From the NCBI GenBank assembly GCA_964493715.1, contig CAZBPC010000029.1, positions 2,205-34,356 of the forward strand: DNA of 32,152 nt, in the 5' to 3' direction. Below, in pieces: positions 61 to 29,975 of the stretch. The translations under genes were made by a program, and so were the position numbers. Below the pieces are notes generated by a model that saw only the letters and a program-made list of their open reading frames with translations, ran no database searches and was not told the DNA's origin. Origin of the DNA: an uncultured archaeon (GTDB taxonomy: Archaea > Asgardarchaeota > Lokiarchaeia > Sigyniarchaeales > SOKP01). How positions within the stretch are numbered: the stretch's first letter is position 1; every line of letters starts with the position of its first letter.

Positions 61-2952
61 TTAAGATTTTTGGTTGGGGCTGAGAAATCGGAAGAATTCC
101 TTTATATATATGGTAAATGATTTGCCTCTCATTTTTAGTCTTATGTTGTACTTTCTCAATTCATCAACAATTGAAACTGAAAAAGCTCCTAGTAAAACCA
201 CTACCCAATGGTACCATTCTGTTAAAGGAACGACATGAAATGCAACGGAGATTGGCGTGTACAGGATCAAAAATTGCAATGCAAGAGATAGACCTGTTGC
301 CCAGAATAAATGTTTATTTGGGAAGTGATAAAAAGCTTTGGTATTAGAAGTACACGTGAAGACAAATAACAATTCACAAATAATTAAATTTGAAAATATA
401 ATCGTCTGTGTTAAACTTAAAGCGTATAAATTATCTGGATGACCCGTAATTGCATAATTTGCCAAATTTGGCGCTCCCATAGCACTCCAAGCTGGAATAA
501 GAACAGTCCAAAGAAGAACATAAAGAGAAATGTCGGTGATTGAAGTATAAATTCCAAGAAGTAAAGCAGGTCCTTTGATTTCTTTAATTAAAGTAAATCC
601 TTTTCTTGGAGGGGACTTCATGACGTCGGGATCTGTCGGGGTGAATCCAAGAACCATTGCTGGTATGCCATCCGTAGCGATGTTTAACCAAAGTATTTGA
701 ATTGGCTGGACAGGAATTCCAAGAAAAATATTTCCCCATATTTTCATTACAATATAAGCAACTAGAATTAGAAATATCTCATCGAAATTCGTACTTAGCA
801 TGTATCGGAAGAATCCTTTGGTAGTCTCAAAAATTCCCCTTCCTTCTTCTATCGCATTTACTATCGTTGCATAATTATCATCAATTAATATCATATCTGA
901 TGCTTCTTGAGTGACTTCTGTTCCTTTTAATCCCATAGCTACTCCAACGTGAGCTCCTTTCACTGCAGGTGCATCATTTACTCCATCCCCTGTCATGGCG
1001 ACGATTAAATCTAATTCTTTAAGGCGTCTTAGAATTCTTAACTTGTGTTCAGAAGTTACTCTGGCAAACACGTCTACAGTTTTTACCTTCTCTCTTAGTT
1101 CATCATCATCCATTTCTTCAAGATCAACACCCGTAAGAGCTTCATTTGATTCTGTTAAGCCAATTTGCTGTGCAATCGCTAGAGCTGTTACCGCATGGTC
1201 TCCCGTTATCATAATGGTTCTTATTCCTGCCATTCTAGCTTCTTTAATTGCATCTTTCACTTCATCTCTCGCAGGATCTATAATTCCCACTAATCCAATA
1301 TAGGTAAAATTTTTCTCAACCTCATTGATATCATATCCTGGTTCTAACTCCTTATATGCCACACCAAGTACTCTTAGAGCATTTTTCGCAAATTCATCAT
1401 TTTGATGTAAAATTTCATCTTTCAGTGTTTGGTCTGATTTTTTTTCACCATTAGATAATACTTGAGACGCATTCCTCATTAAAATATCAGGAGCTCCTTT
1501 AATTAATGCAACAGTTTTACCATTCAAATTTCCAATTACACTCATCATCTTTCTATCAGAATCGAAAGGAATTTCTTCCTGCTTTTCAAAAGAATCATTA
1601 ACTTTGGATTTAATCCCAAGCACTTTCATTGATATTTCAGTTGGATCTCCAACAACACTAACTTCACCAATATTTTGGTTTAAAATGTTTACATTAGAGT
1701 TATTACAATAGAGGCAAACATCCATAAATTTTTGAAGATCTGGGTTGATTTCAATTGAGGTTCCATTTTTTTGAATCTCTCCCAAAATGTTATATCCAAC
1801 ACCTTCCACATCAAGTACATTTCCATCTAGAAATACCTTTACTACGGTCATCTCATTTTTTGTCAAAGTACCAGTCTTATCGCTACAGATAACGCTTACA
1901 CGGCCCAAAGTTTCAACAGCAGTTAATTTTCGTACTAATGCATTCTTATTGGCCATTTTCTTCATACCAATACTCATTACAACTGTAATAACGACAATTA
2001 GACCTTCTGGAACTGCAGATACTGCTAAACTGATTGCTATTTCAAATGCTTGTACGATCTCATCAATACTTTCAGGAGTAAAGGAAATCCCTTCTGTAAT
2101 TAAAATAATACTAAGTTCAGTAATAAAAACCCCCGCACAAATTACTATTATTATTATCCCTAATAATTTACCAAATTTATCTACCTCTTTTTGAAAAGGA
2201 GTTTGCTCAAGAACCTCTTCTTGCAAGCTTGTAGCGATTTTTCCTATTTCAGTGTTCATTCCTGTCCCTATTACAATTCCTTCTCCATTTCCTCGGGTAA
2301 TAATCGTATTCATATATCCGATGTTTGTTCTATCGGCTAAAATCAATTTTTCATCTACTGCATATGTGTGTTTTTTTACAGGTTTAGATTCCCCTGTTAA
2401 AATGGCTTCATCAGCATAAAGAGAAAATTCCTTGAATAATCTAATATCCGCAGGAAATTTATCCCCATCTTCTACTAAAATTATATCTCCTGGTACTAGT
2501 TCCTCAGCGGGAACTTGTTTGACTTGACCATCCCTACGGACTCTAGCAAAATGAGGAGCTAATTTCTTTAAGCTTTCCATCGATTTTTCAGCTTGATATT
2601 CTTGATAAAATCCTAATACTCCATTAACAATTATAATAATAGCAATAACAATAGCATCAGTGTACTCAGAGGACCAAAATTCAGCTCCTGGTCTGTTACT
2701 CTCATATATACCAATGAGGATAGACACTGCAATAGCAAAATATAATAAATAAATGAGAAAATCTTTAAATTGACCAATAAAAATCTGAAATGCTGTTTTT
2801 CCCTTCTGCTTTATTAATTCATTTTTCCCATATTTTTCAATTCTTACTACTACTTCCTCTTCAGTTAACCCATTTTCACGTGAACTATCCAATGCTTTTA
2901 TAACGTCTTCAGATTTCATAGAGTGTGCGCTAAATTTCTTTATTTCTGCCAT
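61..2952 (-). CDS. P-type cation-transporting ATPase, type IIA (SERCA/PMR1-like, probably Ca2+)
   Basis: 963 aa with TGES actuator, PEGL in TM4, DKTGTLT phosphorylation site, KGAP, MITGD, TGDGVNDAP and LWLNIATDG in TM6; about 10 hydrophobic segments. Confidence 0.95.
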   Translation of the reverse strand: MAEIKKFSAHSMKSEDVIKALDSSRENGLTEEEVVVRIEKYGKNELIKQKGKTAFQIFIGQFKDFLIYLLYFAIAVSILIGIYESNRPGAEFWSSEYTDAIVIAIIIIVNGVLGFYQEYQAEKSMESLKKLAPHFARVRRDGQVKQVPAEELVPGDIILVEDGDKFPADIRLFKEFSLYADEAILTGESKPVKKHTYAVDEKLILADRTNIGYMNTIITRGNGEGIVIGTGMNTEIGKIATSLQEEVLEQTPFQKEVDKFGKLLGIIIIVICAGVFITELSIILITEGISFTPESIDEIVQAFEIAISLAVSAVPEGLIVVITVVMSIGMKKMANKNALVRKLTAVETLGRVSVICSDKTGTLTKNEMTVVKVFLDGNVLDVEGVGYNILGEIQKNGTSIEINPDLQKFMDVCLYCNNSNVNILNQNIGEVSVVGDPTEISMKVLGIKSKVNDSFEKQEEIPFDSDRKMMSVIGNLNGKTVALIKGAPDILMRNASQVLSNGEKKSDQTLKDEILHQNDEFAKNALRVLGVAYKELEPGYDINEVEKNFTYIGLVGIIDPARDEVKDAIKEARMAGIRTIMITGDHAVTALAIAQQIGLTESNEALTGVDLEEMDDDELREKVKTVDVFARVTSEHKLRILRRLKELDLIVAMTGDGVNDAPAVKGAHVGVAMGLKGTEVTQEASDMILIDDNYATIVNAIEEGRGIFETTKGFFRYMLSTNFDEIFLILVAYIVMKIWGNIFLGIPVQPIQILWLNIATDGIPAMVLGFTPTDPDVMKSPPRKGFTLIKEIKGPALLLGIYTSITDISLYVLLWTVLIPAWSAMGAPNLANYAITGHPDNLYALSLTQTIIFSNLIICELLFVFTCTSNTKAFYHFPNKHLFWATGLSLALQFLILYTPISVAFHVVPLTEWYHWVVVLLGAFSVSIVDELRKYNIRLKMRGKSFTIYIKEFFRFLSPNQKS

Positions 2953-3010
2953 CGTTTATTCAATTTTTTTCGTTTTTATTATAAATTTTATATTAAATAA
3001 CATAAGATAT

Positions 3011-3029
3011 AACCTAAATTTTTTAGGTT
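3011..3029. promoter_or_regulatory. Perfect 8-3-8 inverted repeat AACCTAAA-ttt-TTTAGGTT in the divergent intergenic region; candidate transcription-factor operator
   Basis: 3011-3018 is the exact reverse complement of 3022-3029. It lies between the ATPase start (2952) and the putative selenoprotein start (3086). Confidence 0.4.
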
Positions 3030-3045
3030 TTATTTTTTTTATAAC

Positions 3046-3053
3046 TTATAAAA
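3046..3053 (+). promoter_or_regulatory. Candidate TATA box (TTATAAAA) for the putative selenoprotein gene
   Basis: About 33-40 nt upstream of ATG 3086, with an SD-like GGTGA at 3079-3083. The AT-rich background weakens the call. Confidence 0.3.
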
Positions 3054-3085
3054 GAGAGTATCATAAAAAAATAATTCTGGTGATT

Positions 3086-3437
3086 ATGTTTTAAATTAAA
3101 GTTTTCAGAAACTGCATTAGATTATATTCGTGAACAAAATAAAAACTTTGAAGAAAACGATTTGGAAAAAAAAGTCGTTGTCCTCTTTTACCACTCTTCC
3201 GAATCATGACTTCTTTCATTCTGTGGAAACGTTGTAGAATTAGTAGAATCCAAAAAAGTAAAAAATGACTTGGATTTCATAGTTTGGATTGATGAGGAGA
3301 CCAATAAACTTGGGATTCAGGTTTACATTGAACAAAAAATAATAGATGAACTAAAACAAAATTCAGTAATCCAAATCAACGTGGCTATAGGCGAACTTAA
3401 AGGAGAAAAAATTGGATTCTTGTTCATGAAGACATAA
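3086..3437 (+). CDS. Putative HesB/IscA-like selenoprotein (~116 aa, in-frame TGA at 3207-3209); not in the ORF track. The start needs a +1 shift or correction of one extra T
   Basis: Frame 3090-3437 reads FKLKFSETALDYIREQNKNFEENDLEKKVVVLFYHSSES*LLSFCGNVVELVESKKVKNDLDFIVWIDEETNKLGIQVYIEQKIIDELKQNSVIQINVAIGELKGEKIGFLFMKT-TAA with a single TGA. The pattern resembles HesB-like proteins (x-S/T-E-x-A-x2-I helix, hydrophobic strand, redox residue, later G-I-x-V-Y-I-E). A SECIS-like hairpin follows. Confidence 0.7.
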
Positions 3438-3455
3438 GATATATCATGAGCAAAA

Positions 3456-3492
3456 ATGAACTTATTCTAATAAAAATGAGAGAATAGGTGAT
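3456..3492 (+). promoter_or_regulatory. Eukaryote-like SECIS element in the 3' UTR
   Basis: AUGAA (3456-3460), helix CUUAUUCU (3461-3468) paired with AGAAUAGG (3481-3488; 7 Watson-Crick + 1 GU), A-rich apical region AAUAAAAAUGAG, then UGAU (3489-3492). This gives the UGAN/NGAN core with tandem sheared GA pairs. Confidence 0.7.
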
Positions 3493-3861
3493 TTACGGTA
3501 GCTTCCGTATCATGTAAAATTTAAATATTTGCATAAGAAAATTTATAAAGAGATAATATCATTTAATCGATAATCTGACTAAAAAAGTTGAAACTGTATT
3601 ATACGAATCAGTAGAGTGTTTCGTTGTGTTGTTAGGATATTTCTTTTAGTATTAACCTTATCTTTAACTGAAGTTTCTATTCTTGGCGAAATTTTTAGTT
3701 CAGAAAGGTAAATATATCACAATCTCAGAGGAAAAGTTAAAGGAAGTTGAAGAGATTGAAGATATCTCGAAAATCTATAAAGATAATGACGATAGAAAAA
3801 GTAATTCTGGTCAAATTTAGTGTCTTAATGACAATAAAATAAAAAGAATTTTTGGATATTT

Positions 3862-7100: not shown

Positions 7101-8702
7101 TTAAAAATTATAAATGATTGACTTAAGATCCTCAACTATTTTTTGTCTGAGAGAACTATGTGAAACGCTTGGTAACAACTCTTCTAATATATCTCTTAAT
7201 TCAATAATCTTTTCTTTTAATAATTCTGGTTTGCTCCATAATGACTTTCGAAGGGGATGGCTATGAAGTATTGCTTTATTATAATTTTCTATTGATTCTC
7301 TATAAAAAAGGCAAGCACTATCATAATTCTCCAATCTAGTTTGATAAATAGTTCCAATCTTGTTAAAACACATGCCTGCTCCAGCATAATCACCAACATT
7401 TTCAAATAGAATTGCCGCATCTCTAATTTTACTTAATGCTGACTTCAAAACATCATTCTTTCCCTGTTTTAACAAGATATATCCAAGAATGTAATTAGAT
7501 ACAGCTTTATAAAACGTATTATCTTGTTCCTCTGCTAATTTTATTAGATCAGTTGCAAATTCTTCTGCTAAGACTAGATGATTGTTTGAGATGCATAATT
7601 TAATCAGATTTTGCAATAAATCTTGAATTCGGTCAAGATCTCCTTCTCTCTTATAAATCTTTATTCCTTGACGATATTTTTCTACTCCTGTAAAAGGATC
7701 TCGTTGTTGAAATGCTGAATTACCTTCATATATTAATTTTTCTGCTCTTTCTAAATTTCCTTCGATTTTAGTTTTGGTATGATTTGATTCATCCCAAAAA
7801 AGGTTATTGATGTCAAAAGAGACTTCTTTTTTCATAGGAATATCTACTAAGACTTCCTTATCTGGCCTTGTATCAATTTCAGTATTCATCTCATCTTTTA
7901 CAATGTTATTTTGATGTTTCTCACCATATGCTGACTGTAACGGTTTTCCTACTGATACTAAAGCTGATAATTCAGATAAAACGTTGGCAAAGAAATACTT
8001 ATTCAAACCCTCCACAATATAATCTACTTTATGGTAATTTGTCTCATATTCAGCAGAATTAGGATCCATATTAACATCTGTTAGTCTATATATCTCAAAT
8101 CCCGTACTGTATTTCGTTAATACATTCTCTCCGATTTTTTCTTCCCTCTTTTTTCCCAATAAACTATGATCAAAAACTAAACCAATTGAATCATTAAATT
8201 TATTTTGAAAACCTAGCTGATTTATAAGATCAACGTAAGAAAAGAATAACGTTAATCCTGGATGTGAATGGAACCAACCGACAACAAAATGTCCATTATT
8301 CTCTTCATACAATTGCTGTTCAATCTCATCTATAAAAATATAGTGCCTATGATCCAATTGAACATCCGTGTCATGACCAAAAGTTAAAGCATAGGCATTT
8401 TCTACACGGACAAAATCATCATCAACATAACCCGTTAGAATGCCATAAATTTCCTTCCATTCAGTAGGTGGTATCGCTTGATTAGCAAATCGACTTGCGT
8501 ATAAAATGATTGTTTTATATGCTTCAGCATTTATTATGGCAGGTTTACCAAGATTTAAAGATTCATCTTGTTTGGAGAATGCATTATTCTCATTATTAAT
8601 ATTACCATTTTTTTCCGGTTTTTGATTTTCATTAGACATTTTACTATAATTGAAGAGAATTTGACCATTTTTTGTTGCTTTAAAATCATATACAAATACC
8701 AT
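7101..8702 (-). CDS. JAMM/MPN+ metallo-isopeptidase (Rpn11/CSN5-like) fused to C-terminal TPR-like repeats
   Basis: Catalytic Glu in EIYGIL; GWFHSHPGLTLFFSYVD is an intact HxH-x7-S-x2-D motif (~8229-8270). The C-terminal ~210 aa are TPR/SNAP-like helices. True start may be the downstream Met (MSNENQ). Confidence 0.85.
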   Translation of the reverse strand: MVFVYDFKATKNGQILFNYSKMSNENQKPEKNGNINNENNAFSKQDESLNLGKPAIINAEAYKTIILYASRFANQAIPPTEWKEIYGILTGYVDDDFVRVENAYALTFGHDTDVQLDHRHYIFIDEIEQQLYEENNGHFVVGWFHSHPGLTLFFSYVDLINQLGFQNKFNDSIGLVFDHSLLGKKREEKIGENVLTKYSTGFEIYRLTDVNMDPNSAEYETNYHKVDYIVEGLNKYFFANVLSELSALVSVGKPLQSAYGEKHQNNIVKDEMNTEIDTRPDKEVLVDIPMKKEVSFDINNLFWDESNHTKTKIEGNLERAEKLIYEGNSAFQQRDPFTGVEKYRQGIKIYKREGDLDRIQDLLQNLIKLCISNNHLVLAEEFATDLIKLAEEQDNTFYKAVSNYILGYILLKQGKNDVLKSALSKIRDAAILFENVGDYAGAGMCFNKIGTIYQTRLENYDSACLFYRESIENYNKAILHSHPLRKSLWSKPELLKEKIIELRDILEELLPSVSHSSLRQKIVEDLKSIIYNF

Positions 8703-15834: not shown

Positions 15835-16905
15835 ATGATTGAAGAATTTTTGAGGGATGAAAAATCAGCTATAGACCTTCATTTAGAAGAATATTTTTCA
15901 AATTTGCATAATGAAGAAAAGGAAATTCTGCTAAAAGATTACACTTCTCAATTAAAAGAATTTGTCTTAAATAAAAAAGCTAAACGATTACATCCTATAT
16001 TATTAATAGCGGCATTTATAGGAATTGTTAATCCAATTTATTTAGAAGATCAAATTGAACACATTAGAAAAGTCTCATTAGCTATTGAATTATTACATAG
16101 TGCTTACCTTATCCATGATGATTTAATAGATAGCGATGAAGTTCGGAGGAATGAGCCTACATTTCATATTCAATTAAAAAATGAAATGAATAGGATATAC
16201 AAAGACTCAGATATCTTAAAATTTGACGCTTATAATATGTATGGAAGGGATTTAAGTATTCTAGGAGGCACACAAGGATATATCTTAGGACTTAATTTAA
16301 TAAAAGATTCAAAATTCCCAGATAATCTGAAATTAATGGCTATGAATGAATATATCTCTGCTATGGATTATATGGTGAAAGGGCAAATCCTGGAAATATA
16401 TATGCATTACCATAACATAACCATGACATTAGAACAGTATCTAAATATTGCTGAAATGCAAAAAGCACGATTATTAGAAAAATCCACTAAAATAGGAGCA
16501 ATATTAGCAAAAGGAAACTTACATTATCAAATCAAACCTCTAGGTGAAGCCTTACTACTTATGGGTCAAGCATACGCAATCAGAGATGATATTTTAGACA
16601 CGAGGGAAGACATTAAAAGTAAAAAGAAAAAAAGTCTCTATATTCTTGCAGTTCAGAATACAGACGAAGAGCAATCAAGAATATTGAATGAAATTTATCA
16701 TCAAGATGAATTATCATCAAGTGATGTTAAAGATGTTGAGAAGATCTTTGCTGAAACAAATGCCATAATTGTTGCTGATCATTTTGCTAAAAATTTAATT
16801 GTACAAGCAAAAAGACATCTTAAAGACATTTACCCTGATTTAAATAAAAATCAGAAGGTCTTCTTTAATGAATTTACTGATTATATTTATATGAGAGAAT
16901 TCTAA
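15835..16905 (+). CDS. Trans-polyprenyl diphosphate synthase (IdsA/GGPPS family), divergent
   Basis: AKRLHP, first Asp-rich motif LIHDDLIDSDEVRR, GQ, second Asp-rich motif IRDDILD. Confidence 0.88.
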   Translation: MIEEFLRDEKSAIDLHLEEYFSNLHNEEKEILLKDYTSQLKEFVLNKKAKRLHPILLIAAFIGIVNPIYLEDQIEHIRKVSLAIELLHSAYLIHDDLIDSDEVRRNEPTFHIQLKNEMNRIYKDSDILKFDAYNMYGRDLSILGGTQGYILGLNLIKDSKFPDNLKLMAMNEYISAMDYMVKGQILEIYMHYHNITMTLEQYLNIAEMQKARLLEKSTKIGAILAKGNLHYQIKPLGEALLLMGQAYAIRDDILDTREDIKSKKKKSLYILAVQNTDEEQSRILNEIYHQDELSSSDVKDVEKIFAETNAIIVADHFAKNLIVQAKRHLKDIYPDLNKNQKVFFNEFTDYIYMREF

Positions 16906-16913
16906 TGAAGAAT

Positions 16914-17519
16914 TTAAATCACTAAATACTTTGACTGATTATTTTTTAACATCAGGTTATTTAATTCTTTAAATACATGGATTACATTATAATTTTCCAA
17001 TGCTGAGGTTCTATAATAACCTGTTAATCTCTTTTCTTTTAAGAAAGTTTGAATAAGAGTTTCATCGACTAAATTTTCTTTTTGAGTTGTTTCAATTAAA
17101 TCTTTTTTACTTCCTACAAGAATTTTAGGTATACTTGAACCCTTTGCATGCTGGATTAATTGATCATACCAAAAATCTAAATATTCAAAAGATTCTGAAC
17201 TTGTTAGATCAAAAACCATTAAAGCCCCATCAGCCCCCTTGAGAAATTTAGGAATAAGTGGTCTAAAACGTTCTTGACCACCAAAATCAAAAATGGAATT
17301 TGAAACAAGTTTCTCTCCTTGATCATCAGAATTTTCAGTATTATAAATAGGTAAATTAATTGAATGAAAATTTATTCCAATTGTCATAGATGTATCAAAA
17401 TTGAATGAATTAAAGCAAAAACGATTAAAAAGACAAGTTTTCCCTACTGCTGGACCACCTAATATAACAATTTTAAAAGAATATGTTACTAATTTTTCTT
17501 GAATTGCAATTCTCTTCAA
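16914..17519 (-). CDS. Rab-like small GTPase (Asgard eukaryotic-signature type)
   Basis: G1 GGPAVGKT, switch I TIG, G3 DFGGQERF, G4 variant SKKD, G5 TSA; no C-terminal Cys. Confidence 0.92.
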   Translation of the reverse strand: MKRIAIQEKLVTYSFKIVILGGPAVGKTCLFNRFCFNSFNFDTSMTIGINFHSINLPIYNTENSDDQGEKLVSNSIFDFGGQERFRPLIPKFLKGADGALMVFDLTSSESFEYLDFWYDQLIQHAKGSSIPKILVGSKKDLIETTQKENLVDETLIQTFLKEKRLTGYYRTSALENYNVIHVFKELNNLMLKNNQSKYLVI

Positions 17520-28448: not shown

Positions 28449-29975
28449 ATGGTTATTCCTTTACCCGGTACACCTGTAATAGTAGATGTAGGTTCGGCTT
28501 ATTGCAAAGTAGGTTTTGCAGGAGAACCTAGTCCCCGATTTGTCTTTCCAACAATAACAGGCACAGAAAAATATAAAGCTGTGATGGTTGATGTTAATGC
28601 AAGAAATATTTATATTGGAAACGATGCGTCTCGAATGAGAGGGGTACTTAAGGTAAAACACCCAATAGATAGAGGTGCTATTTTGGATTGGAATGATTAT
28701 TATGAAATTTTAAATTATATATTTTATACTCTTCTAAGGATTGATAATCTCTCCAATTATCCTGTCCTCTATACTGAAGCTCCCTTTGTACAAAGAGAAA
28801 CTAAAGAATATATCGCACGTGTTTTATATGAAACACATAGAATTAAAAGTTTAATAATGGTTCCAACTCCTATTCTTTCAATATTTAGTGTGGGATTGAC
28901 AACGGGTCTCGTGATTGAGTCTGGAGACGGATTAACATGGGTGTGCCCTATTATTAATGGGCAAATTATAGATCAGAGCGTACAGAAATTGACTTTAGCT
29001 GGAATGGATGTAAATCAATATTTAAAAAATCTATTGATGAGAGAGGGCATCAATATAGAATCTTCTGCAGTAGAAGAGATTATTAGAGAAATTAAAGAAA
29101 AAAACTGTTATTTCATTTTAGATCCAGAAAGTCAACCAGATATGAATGATAGTTTCAATTTGTCGATGCCTGATGGTTCTTCGATAAATATTCCTCATTT
29201 TATCTTTCATGAAGCTCCAGAAGTAATGTTTCAACCCCAATTACTTGGATATCCGATTATGAGCATCTCTCAAGCAATTATTGAGAGTTTACAAGGAATA
29301 GATAAACATTATTGGTCAGACCTTTTATCTCATATTGTCATATCGGGAGGAAATTTCTCTTACTCTGGTTTTGAAGATCGATTAAAAATGGAGTTAAATG
29401 CGTTATTACCTCAATTAGGCAAGATTCCGAAACCTAAAGTTAATGAAGCTAAACAAGATTCTAAATTAAAATTAAAAAGTATAAAAGGTGGGAAAAAATC
29501 ACAGGATACATGTCCTCATTGTGGTACATTGGTAGATTTATCTGATGACAAAGAATTCTGCCCTTCGTGTGGTGGACGAATGATACTTCCCGAATTATCT
29601 ATAGAATTAGGTGGAACCCCATCAAAAGTTGAAATGATTGATGGAAAAGTAATATGTCCTCATTGTAATAAATTAATAGAAGACTTTTCATCTATTTTCT
29701 GCCCGTATTGTGGAAAGGGAGTGCAAACATTTGATCCCCCAGATGCAATGGCAAAAAAGATCAATCAAACGGTTCTTGCTAAAGAATTTTCTGGTTTTTA
29801 TGATTCGGTTGAAGAGGTATTAAGATATTTTGTTCCGGATAATCTTCAATATGCTATCTTTAATGGAGCTGCCATCTTAGGAAGTTTACCTTCTTTTCTT
29901 CGATTATTTGTAACTCATGAAGAGTTCTTGCAGAATAATGAACACTTATACAAAGACATAAGCGAAATTTTCTAA
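28449..29975 (+). CDS. Actin-family (actin-related) protein with double zinc-ribbon insertion
   Basis: DVGSAYCKVGFAG..P..VFP, PIDRG, TEAP, TTGLVIESGDG, LAGMDV, IKEK.CY, MPDG, PEVMFQP, ISGG and GAAILGSL. The insertion carries CPHC..CPSC and CPHC..CPYC. Confidence 0.93.
   Translation: MVIPLPGTPVIVDVGSAYCKVGFAGEPSPRFVFPTITGTEKYKAVMVDVNARNIYIGNDASRMRGVLKVKHPIDRGAILDWNDYYEILNYIFYTLLRIDNLSNYPVLYTEAPFVQRETKEYIARVLYETHRIKSLIMVPTPILSIFSVGLTTGLVIESGDGLTWVCPIINGQIIDQSVQKLTLAGMDVNQYLKNLLMREGINIESSAVEEIIREIKEKNCYFILDPESQPDMNDSFNLSMPDGSSINIPHFIFHEAPEVMFQPQLLGYPIMSISQAIIESLQGIDKHYWSDLLSHIVISGGNFSYSGFEDRLKMELNALLPQLGKIPKPKVNEAKQDSKLKLKSIKGGKKSQDTCPHCGTLVDLSDDKEFCPSCGGRMILPELSIELGGTPSKVEMIDGKVICPHCNKLIEDFSSIFCPYCGKGVQTFDPPDAMAKKINQTVLAKEFSGFYDSVEEVLRYFVPDNLQYAIFNGAAILGSLPSFLRLFVTHEEFLQNNEHLYKDISEIF

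Follow-up and report, generated by a model that had tools for sequence, protein, structure and literature searches.

Known Asgard selenoproteins and a further family

Until now Asgard selenoproteins have been catalogued through their homology to known families, and a lineage-specific family has escaped this catalogue. In their main texts, the 2016 Loki study of Mariotti et al. (PMC4989117) lists SPS, VhuU, VhuD, HdrA and a Prx-like protein, Sun et al. (2021) HdrA, Prx and MvhD, and a 2024 survey, which covered over 400 Asgard genomes and looked for homologues of known selenoproteins, seven families (PMC11227280); the main text of a 2026 review repeats this seven-family list (PMC13188914). Table 1 of that review gives the selenocysteine (Sec, U) motif of HesB-like selenoproteins as U-x-G-P and lists them for archaea and bacteria. 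The window analysed here, 32,152 nucleotides (nt) of contig CAZBPC010000029.1 counted from its first letter, belongs to a Lokiarchaeial genome of the Promethearchaeota (G000) and carries at 3087-3440 of the forward strand what is very probably a functional selenoprotein gene, a judgement that covers the gene, the decoding of its in-frame TGA as Sec and the fold of the product jointly. It makes the IscA/HesB scaffold home to a second selenoprotein family, which is restricted to one lineage and uses the known Loki system of selenocysteine insertion sequences (SECIS).

This family, HesB in Asgard archaea and a U-x4-C protein all go unmentioned in the main texts of the 2016, 2021, 2024 and 2026 papers on Asgard selenoproteins. 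The preliminary description of this DNA knew of no account of such a protein, which agrees with the main texts of the 2016, 2024 and 2026 selenoproteome papers; literature searches brought up no other account. As for the recoding signal, the lokiSECIS of the 2016 text has an AUGA, a 9-base-pair (bp) stem, an 11-nt loop that starts with adenines and ends in a G preceded by A, a GA 3' of the stem and a site close to the stop codon, and the same text remarks that standard SECIS tools miss all Loki SECIS elements (PMC4989117).

The reading frame and its in-frame UGA

One frame runs on the forward strand from 3084 to a TAA at 3438-3440, and its sole interruption is the TGA at 3207-3209. When this TGA is read as U, 3084-3437 gives LCFKLKFSETALDYIREQNKNFEENDLEKKVVVLFYHSSES-U-LLSFCGNVVELVES...FLFMKT ahead of the TAA, with VVVLFYHSSES-U-LLSFCGN about the Sec. 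The features of the locus are as follows.

3046..3053, forward strand: TATA-box-like TTATAAAA, about 33 nt 5' of the start slot, box and spacing being kept in orthologous loci
3079..3084, forward strand: Shine-Dalgarno-like GGTGAT, 2 nt 5' of the start slot
3087..3437, forward strand: coding sequence of 116 sense codons including slot codon and Sec, supported by homologues, by the ratio of non-synonymous to synonymous substitution rates (dN/dS) and by the AlphaFold model
3087-3089, forward strand: slot codon TGT, followed by the first conserved codons, TTT AAA, at 3090-3095
3207..3209, forward strand: UGA, putative Sec codon, residue 41, at the tip of the predicted beta2-beta3 hairpin (column conservation; model strands 29-39 and 44-54)
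3222..3224, forward strand: codon of Cys46, the partner in U-x4-C-G-N, at least 90% conserved over 50 aligned sequences and the most conserved residue after Sec
3438..3440, forward strand: stop codon TAA, read from the sequence

That the frame is broken by this TGA alone, with protein-like sequence 5' and 3' of it, and that the U-x4-C spacing is real were claims of the preliminary description that stand, the spacing being conserved as well. Its account of the 5' end needs correction: the ATG at 3086-3088 belongs to a different frame, which soon stops (ATG TTT TAA), and the slot is TGT; the span 3086-3437 has 352 bases, which is not a multiple of three; and the 115 codons counted there become 116 sense codons when the slot codon and Sec are included.

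An in-frame TGA at 3081-3083 lies directly 5' of the frame that opens with TGT 3087, and in most of 51 genes of the window's type (type 1; the types are set out below) an in-frame stop likewise falls 0-2 codons 5' of the slot. Shine-Dalgarno motifs pair with the 3' end of 16S rRNA, and in nearly all 51 genes GGTG(A/G)T stands at a fixed distance, 2-3 nt 5' of the slot, with TTT AAA following it. The slot itself is occupied by TTG in 19 of the 51, ATG in 6, CTG in 5, GTG in 1 and another codon in 20 (TTT, ATA, GTA, ATT, CAT, AAA, TGT, GAA, TTA, AAT, ACT, TCG and one TAG). The start codon of the gene would, on this arrangement, be the slot codon, and TTATAAAA is a putative archaeal promoter, to judge from its letters and position. 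A programmed +1 frameshift from the out-of-frame ATG on T TTT AAA was considered and rejected, the orthologues needing different shifts or having no ATG. Contigs from three other runs (X5, X6 and X7) span 2900-3480 with zero indels and leave 3086-3092 and 3207-3209 unchanged, and so neither the TTTT run nor the TGA is a slip in the assembly of one sample.

Conservation of the UGA and selection past it

The read-through protein finds full-length homologues of 42-83% identity in 23 of 60 related genomes (the window's own genome included). These 23 belong to a single genus, and every homologue has one in-frame TGA and no more; among the 24 genomes from other genera no match was better than E 0.01. 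The site of the TGA is common to these homologues and lies in the motif FYHSxE[ST]-U-x[ML]x[FL]-C-G-N. A profile of 20 sequences run against 398 Asgard genomes places the gene in 52 of them, all within one GTDB family and spread over 11 genera (besides the window's genome, 51 carriers among 132 family genomes); in the other 265 Asgard genomes of this search it was not found. Each of the 59 genomic matches carries one TGA, and in the 58 distinct genes of at least 100 codons that were used for the column and selection tests the TGA occupies a single alignment column, down to identities of about 40%. The type-1 gene at 67 further DNA loci, comprising 43 metagenome contigs and 24 genome-collection loci, has TGA at every one and TGG at none, all 43 metagenome contigs showing TGA at the Sec column; 66 of the loci were matched by a motif script and the TGA of the remaining one (L143) was confirmed by eye in translation.

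Past the TGA the frame continues to behave as protein. Pairwise differences at codon positions 1, 2 and 3 are 0.46, 0.28 and 0.55 upstream of it and 0.41, 0.23 and 0.57 downstream, where position 3 again exceeds position 1 and position 1 exceeds position 2. The dN/dS by the NG86 method lies below 0.25 on either side; downstream, 13 of 14 pairs have values of 0.047-0.243 and one is saturated. On these comparisons the frame 3' of the TGA is under purifying selection. Over 50 sequences Sec41 is invariant and Cys46 at least 90% conserved, and these are the two best-conserved residues of the protein. The first in-frame start codon 3' of the TGA is a TTG at 3270, past the conserved FCGN. The preliminary description had pointed to the aligned position, TGA or Cys, and to conservation on its far side as what should be looked at: the position is TGA in all Sec-type homologues on each of the three counts above and Cys in a rare paralogue, and the constraint persists downstream.

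A three-helix SECIS element behind the stop codon

The RNA 3' of the stop codon was examined by minimum free energy (MFE) folding and with two covariance models. Model R1 was made from 14 orthologue elements, the window clade excluded, with the structure set by hand; model R2 was made solely from the cores of five elements of the window's own genome (VhuD three times, VhuU and Prx-like). The element is composed as follows.

3445..3514, forward strand: SECIS element, 247 nt past the UGA (MFE fold, R1, R2, covariation)
3445-3449 with 3510-3514, forward strand: helix I (MFE fold)
3456-3459, forward strand: AUGA, 5' of the 9-bp stem
3460-3468 with 3481-3489, forward strand: helix II, 9 bp (MFE fold)
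3469-3480, forward strand: apical loop AAUAAAAAUGAG, A-rich, 12 nt, ending in AG (MFE fold)
3490-3491, forward strand: GA, 3' of the stem
3494-3498 with 3505-3509, forward strand: hairpin III, small (MFE fold)

The MFE fold of 3445-3514 has -14.9 kcal/mol (z -2.36), which 3 of 200 shuffles equal, and the three-helix fold, a three-way junction, is the MFE structure in 18 of 19 orthologues. In all orthologues the element stands directly 3' of the stop. It begins 5' with a basal helix, from which a few unpaired bases lead to AUGA and the 9-bp helix; this helix is capped by an A-rich loop of 11-12 nt with AG as its last letters, and once its second strand has passed, GA and a small G+C-rich hairpin come before the basal helix closes. 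In the window the apical loop has 12 nt, against 11 in most orthologues; AUGA and GA are kept throughout, apart from one type-2 element with ACGA. A SECIS-like hairpin had been noted after the stop, and of that claim the structured element stands, while the simple hairpin has given way to a SECIS of three helices.

Covariation supports the same structure. RNAalifold on a plain MAFFT alignment returned hairpin III only, because MAFFT had shifted the window clade, and the structure was then set by hand; in the resulting 14-sequence alignment 96.2% of cells are paired, against 35-55% with the partners slid. R1 gives the window element 42.7 bits, with a genome-wide E of 6.5e-6. Three other R1 hits in the genome (E 1.5-9.6) are marginal, lie inside ordinary coding sequence and were rejected. 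Elsewhere R1 matches 60 elements in 55 other loci, those behind type-2 genes among them. In the 57 distinct elements outside the R1 training set, aligned by fitting to the model structure and hence with pairing favoured, 92.9% of cells are paired against 40-51% in slid controls, compensatory double changes occur at 19 of 19 pairs (159 cells) and the covariation score is 0.484 against 0.02-0.11. With these 60 covarying elements a basal helix and a third hairpin are added to the picture of the Loki SECIS.

A structural SECIS descriptor gave 19 hits over the whole genome, 8 of which lack a convincing selenoprotein open reading frame (ORF); 5 of the 19 stand only a few bases from the stop codons of read-through ORFs that belong to accepted Loki families, namely three HdrA-VhuD pairs, VhuU and Prx-like. 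R2, searched over both strands of the window with filters off, has its best hit at 3453-3494 on the forward strand (28.2 bits, E 3.9e-5), within the element; the runner-up at 16183-16224 (forward strand, 18.2 bits, E 0.02) lies in a polyprenyl synthetase ORF, has no 3' GA and is probably a chance match. Rfam on 3380-3600 showed no SECIS at E up to 10 and only C/D-box snoRNA noise at E of about 1-2, a blank that agrees with the remark of Mariotti et al. on standard tools.

The SECIS elements of the genome on C7, C12, C59, C74 and C77 likewise fold as three-way junctions, in which a small G+C-rich hairpin follows the 3' GA and precedes the second strand of the basal helix, and the selD SECIS elements have the same extra hairpin together with a type II apical part. 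In most orthologues (L009-L024 and others) the last codons, ...V-Y-G stop (GTATACGG), form the 5' strand of the basal helix, so that RNA structure may constrain the conserved C-terminal tail; in contrast, the window clade is without that tail and has its basal strand in the 3' untranslated region (UTR).

Selenocysteine machinery

The genome of the window has a tRNA-Sec (59 bits, cut-off 47), the one tRNA found to have the anticodon TCA, and 76 nt downstream of it SepSecS (476 bits). The selD gene is present as two neighbours (C18:41768-42559 and 43566-44417, forward strand), each with one in-frame TGA and a type II SECIS of its own; this pair matches the two or more selD genes that the text of the 2024 survey gives for some Loki and Thor species (PMC11227280). 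Since TGA closes 256 of the 1529 long open frames, it is a normal stop codon in this genome. The machinery that the preliminary description wished to see beside the gene is in this way largely there, with tRNA-Sec, SepSecS and selD over their cut-offs and candidates for EFSec and PSTK below theirs.

Fold and family membership

AlphaFold2, run with a 46-sequence alignment, gives a model with pLDDT 91.5 and pTM 0.82, in which the order of elements is beta-alpha-beta-beta-alpha-beta-alpha-beta-alpha-beta-beta and Sec41 lies in the turn between strands 29-39 and 44-54. Against the PDB, Foldseek gives its best 12 matches at probability 0.80-1.00 (E 3.6e-4 to 2e-3) and all later ones at 0.20 or less. 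SufA 2d2a leads at E 3.6e-4, followed by IscA 1r94 at E 6.7e-4 with TM 0.55/0.64, and the 12 include 2d2a, 1r94, 1s98, 1x0g, HI1723, AQ_1857, DsrR and two 'putative Fe-S biosynthesis' proteins. HI1723, AQ_1857, DsrR and YneR are taken to be IscA-like, their titles not all being explicit. VIA-align, which is independent of Foldseek, ranked a library of 48,161 representative chains as follows, the next row after these seven standing at Z 3.4.

1r94 IscA: Z 8.8, rmsd 3.4 A, 92 aligned
2d2a SufA: Z 8.5, rmsd 2.8 A, 89 aligned
2k4z DsrR: Z 7.0, rmsd 3.8 A, 94 aligned
1x0g IscA: Z 6.8, rmsd 3.6 A, 84 aligned
2qgo putative Fe-S biosynthesis protein: Z 6.5, rmsd 3.1 A, 84 aligned
2p2e putative Fe-S biosynthesis protein: Z 6.4, rmsd 3.4 A, 92 aligned
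2apn HI1723: Z 5.3, rmsd 3.6 A, 92 aligned

Because the model was matched to IscA and SufA in Foldseek and VIA-align alike, the protein is predicted to have the IscA/HesB scaffold. The HesB/IscA-like assignment had been made from the sequence, with structure prediction named as its check: as a statement about fold it stands, and as membership of TIGR01911 or PF01521 by threshold it does not.

Sequence comparison sees little of this. The window protein has a sub-threshold Peptidase_M20 match only in Pfam and no match in NCBIfam, and TIGR01911 does not hit it at E up to 10. None of 20 type-1 members is hit by PF01521 up to the same E, Pfam showing scattered noise only; the best PF01521 score in the family is that of a Cys-form protein (P0041), 19.4 bits against a cut-off of 26.3 (E 0.0013). 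TIGR01911 passes its cut-off of 66.35 bits in none of the 398 Asgard genomes, with no hit at this gene, and profiles A3 and A4 searched against PDB sequences gave 0 hits at E up to 10. NF038090 and TIGR00049 each matched one family member, and the JGI name of one Cys form is 'IscA'. Together with the weak TIGR01911 and hhalign matches given below, these faint signals agree in their direction. A-type carriers are defined by three ligand cysteines, including a C-terminal Cys-x-Cys. The window protein has, besides Sec41, the cysteines Cys1 and Cys46 and none after residue 46, and alignments A4 and A14 show no conserved C-terminal Cys. The proteins make up a separate family, restricted to a single GTDB family of the Asgard archaea; it comprises type 1, type 2 and a rare Cys form and is too diverged for the PF01521 and TIGR01911 thresholds.

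Paralogue types and the tryptophan gene calls

Type 1, to which the window gene belongs, has U-x4-C-G-N. Type 2 is a second gene directly 3' in several genomes, with R-S-U-S-G-x-[FY]-C, again a U-x4-C and again with TGA. The Cys form has Cys at the Sec column and Leu for the partner Cys (...K-Q-A-C-A-G-S-Y-L-D-Y...) and is one uninterrupted protein with a single Cys; it occurs in 3 of the 398 genomes, all of one genus, where it lies between the type-1 and type-2 genes. When the type-1 alignment alone is compared by hhalign with 15 Cys-form proteins the probability is 97.7% (E 2e-12, 98 columns), and the Sec column falls on the invariant Cys. In an unrooted maximum-likelihood tree type 1 forms one clade and the Cys form another (each 100/100), with type 2 joining the Cys form; without a root, the tree favours neither direction of the Sec/Cys change. 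Natural Sec and Cys paralogues side by side would be handy for asking what Sec does on this fold.

An exhaustive hidden Markov model search of 1.84 billion representative proteins gave 42 matches only, which are pieces from the N terminus as far as profile position 40, pieces of the C-terminal part from position 43 on and full-length forms with W at the Sec column; the fragments in public gene calls cover profile positions 1-40 and 43-127. A search with the Cys protein P0039 alone returned the query itself as sole match. The W proteins (P0003, P0005, P0008, P0010, P0013, P0014, P0028, P0030 and others among them) and the fragments are automatic Logan and ENA calls. Since every DNA locus fetched has TGA and none TGG, the simplest explanation of the W is that TGA was translated with a different code. 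Homologues with Trp, which the preliminary description had named as what would speak against Sec, do exist as database proteins, but the loci fetched bear them out nowhere. Gene callers evidently mis-predict this family, as fragments or with Trp at the Sec site.

A proposed role for Sec41 and Cys46

In the proposed scheme the UGA at 3207-3209 would be decoded as Sec by the tRNA-Sec and an archaeal/eukaryote-type Sec machinery, directed by the kink-turn (AUGA...GA) SECIS at 3445-3514 in the 3' UTR. The gene, the recoding signal, the machinery and the fold are computed; that selenium is incorporated, and to what biochemical end, we infer. The product would be a cytosolic single-domain protein of about 116 residues with the IscA/SufA (HesB, A-type carrier) fold. 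Sec41 would be displayed at the exposed beta2-beta3 tip, which is the site that profile alignment gives to the first ligand cysteine of IscA, with Cys46 five residues on. Sec41 might act there as the nucleophile or reactive atom or as a ligand atom, while Cys46 might resolve a selenenylsulfide or complete an Se/S chelate with Sec41. The cargo that is carried or reduced would be thiophilic (iron or an iron-sulfur (Fe-S) cluster, persulfide sulfur or another soft metal), and handled unlike in the textbook three-Cys carrier. Such a redox or carrier role for a thiophilic cargo by way of Sec41 and Cys46 is advanced tentatively and falls a little short of an even chance.

The same gene model could also serve a true A-type carrier of Fe-S clusters or iron, in which a dimer would ligate the cluster through Sec41 and Cys46 of its two chains in place of the C-terminal Cys-x-Cys. 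The fold matches IscA and SufA, the cluster-bound IscA 1x0g included, and the Sec is aligned to the first IscA cysteine; moreover six-frame searches with PF01521 found no such protein in the window's genome or in 25 family genomes, and so the carrier role would be vacant. Yet the C-terminal Cys pair is absent, the Cys-form paralogue is left with one Cys that has no partner, most family genomes are without the gene, which is odd for a housekeeping carrier, and no Fe-S assembly genes lie nearby. A true A-type carrier is on this balance possible and rather doubtful.

Weighing the selenoprotein gene

Several observations weigh against reading 3087-3440 as a functional selenoprotein gene with this fold and role. 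The spread of the gene is patchy, it not being found in 80 of the 132 family genomes, 16 of the 40 of the genus among them. The window frame has no canonical start, no ATG, GTG or TTG occurring until a TTG at codon 26, and the slot is something other than these three in 25 of 51 type-1 genes and TAG in one. R2, in a whole-genome run that scored 150 of 2321 first-look candidates, listed its five training elements and four others, and the window element was not among them; the covariation figures carry the bias towards pairing stated with them. The EFSec/SelB-like factor, on the same contig as other parts of the machinery, scores 231 bits, just under the 242 of the bacterial model; for the PSTK-like gene the score is 169 bits and the cut-off 290. 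At the level of family membership there are the PF01521 blank just given, TIGR01911 matches that are weak and occur in 5 of 50 members (best 22.1 bits, E 1.8e-4, on a Cys form), and hhalign probabilities of 22-38% against 15 Asgard IscA domains, over the N-terminal 37-48 columns, where the Sec or Cys is aligned to the IscA cysteine. RNA evidence is weak, consisting of two contigs of 151 nt each from one RNA library, 90-95% alike, that cover 3060-3208 and 3240-3390, stem from a relative and may be DNA carry-over. Finally, the Sec is deduced from nucleotide sequence and the functional proposal from motif and fold. The candidate put forward in the preliminary description is nevertheless borne out by the conserved UGA, the selection downstream of it, the Cys paralogue, the SECIS and the machinery taken together.

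It could be that the UGA is read through with an amino acid other than Sec, for instance Trp or Cys by near-cognate decoding or by a local change of code, and database proteins do have W at the position, while Sec at residue 41 is itself deduced. The W forms come from automatic Logan and ENA calls, with TGA at 67 of 67 loci; the only tRNA found with a TCA anticodon is the tRNA-Sec; behind the gene lies a SECIS of the type proper to this organism; and TGA terminates 256 long frames in the same genome. Readthrough to another residue is accordingly very unlikely.

Equally slight is the likelihood that the UGA is a true stop, closing a 40-residue peptide that is perhaps followed by a separate downstream protein, with the 3' structure being a terminator or some other RNA. 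Public gene calls give exactly such pieces (1-40 and 43-127), TGA is an ordinary stop elsewhere in the genome, and Rfam is without a SECIS hit here at E up to 10. But the next start is the one at 3270, past FCGN; both halves are predicted to form a single IscA-type domain, in which strand 29-39 pairs with 44-54; the Cys-form paralogue is a single uninterrupted protein; and R2, derived from VhuD, VhuU and Prx-like SECIS, picks out the 3' element, in a phylum where, by the text of Mariotti et al. (PMC4989117), standard tools miss all Loki SECIS.

A pseudogene, with the TGA as a nonsense mutation and the odd start as decay, draws on the start without ATG, GTG or TTG, on the 80 family genomes in which the gene was not found and on the following membrane-protein genes that are down to a 31-codon remnant in the window's genome, and is nonetheless extremely improbable against the same TGA in 58 of 58 distinct genes from 11 genera at identities to about 40%, dN/dS of 0.05-0.24 past the TGA, a conserved and covarying SECIS and a confident predicted fold that spans the TGA.

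Genomic context and further candidates

The selenoprotein gene has as neighbours a P2-type cation ATPase (conserved, divergent), an FMN reductase and unknown membrane proteins, and no Fe-S assembly genes were found nearby; this setting says little about the role of the protein. In relatives three membrane-protein genes of unassigned family follow the selenoprotein gene. In the window a 31-codon ORF at 3616-3711 on the forward strand (MFRCVVRIFLLVLTLSL...) is a remnant of the first of these, a gene of about 190 amino acids (aa), with the FMN reductase gene next, and the membrane-protein cluster is otherwise lost from the genome. Asgard signatures elsewhere in the window are an actin homologue fused to zinc ribbons (28449-29975, forward strand), a Ras-family small GTPase (16914-17519, reverse strand) and a JAB/MPN-domain protein (7101-8702, reverse strand).

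A SECIS model from the organism itself exposes several further candidates in the same genome. One, of about 155 aa, is found at C48:21729-22196 (forward strand) and C4:10816-11232 (reverse strand), with loci L175, L176 and L178-L189; it has two adjacent in-frame TGA codons in the motif Q-P-D-V-G-C-U-U-E-K-V-K and a Loki-type SECIS 2 nt past the stop, and R2 hits both copies. This C-U-U candidate is present in 113 of 129 family genomes and 13 of 13 genera, nearly every full-length match having two TGA and some three; it falls in no Pfam or NCBIfam family and in none of the published lists consulted here, in their main texts. Another, C14:11093-11293 (forward strand, L177), is an ORF of 67 residues that has a hydrophobic segment at its N terminus and contains D-D-G-G-G-U-G-C as motif; its SECIS lies 2 nt past the stop (R2, 37.2 bits), and homologues with one TGA each are found in 17 of 129 family genomes. 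SECIS-like elements were also seen at C111:7972-8013 (forward strand, R2 33.6 bits), after a small zinc-ribbon-like ORF ending in TGA, and, by the descriptor only, at about C21 6738 (forward strand), after a 314-aa ORF with a TGA near its N-terminus.

A wider proposal can be framed, which we hold to be speculative and on the whole improbable: that a lineage-specific Se-dependent IscA-scaffold module, made up of two Sec paralogues and one Cys paralogue and sometimes arranged as a three-gene array, replaces the absent canonical A-type carrier for iron, sulfur or another soft metal, that the Shine-Dalgarno-positioned slot tolerates almost any codon, and that the seven-family Asgard selenoproteome is substantially incomplete. 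If true, at least three further SECIS-backed families would reside in this one genome (the present one, the C-U-U family and the G-G-G-U-G-C peptide). Asgard archaea are a reference point for the origin of the eukaryotic selenocysteine system.

Comparison with known systems

In its recoding signal the locus resembles the lokiSECIS, which is like a type I eukaryotic SECIS: the window element likewise has AUGA, a 9-bp stem, an A-rich loop ending in AG, GA and a position near the stop, and it also fits the looser SECIS model given in the text of Huang 2024 (PMC11227280). It differs in its loop of 12 nt rather than 11, and it goes beyond the lokiSECIS as given in the published text by a basal helix and a small G+C-rich hairpin that make up a three-way junction, both covarying; a third hairpin or three-way junction is not mentioned in the text sections of PMC4989117 and PMC11227280 covered here.

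The protein scaffold has been used in several ways. DsrR, 2qgo and 2p2e, which are IscA-like and of unclear role, share the fold with the window protein (Z 7.0, 6.5 and 6.4) and show the scaffold in use outside classical cluster transfer, although the profile searches of PDB sequences gave no sequence-level match of the family to these three. DsrR is presumably without the ligand cysteines, and we know of no selenocysteine reported in DsrR, 2qgo or 2p2e. With IscA, SufA and ErpA (PF01521; 1r94, 1s98, 1x0g, 2d2a) the family shares the fold and a reactive residue in the loop after strand 2, but it is without the C-terminal Cys-x-Cys, has Sec for Cys and has an extra Cys five residues on.

Closest of all are the HesB-like selenoproteins of TIGR01911, which are of the same small, single-domain IscA/HesB type and have their Sec after the second strand, at the first IscA cysteine. 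In contrast to their U-x-G-P, the present family has U-[LT]-x-x-[FL]-C-G-N (U-L-L-S-F-C-G-N in the window and U-S-G-x-F-C in type 2), and in contrast to their euryarchaeal GAA_A SECIS it has a eukaryote-like SECIS and is confined to one Lokiarchaeial family. In this sense the IscA/HesB scaffold would bear a second selenoprotein, independent of the first and with another active-site motif.

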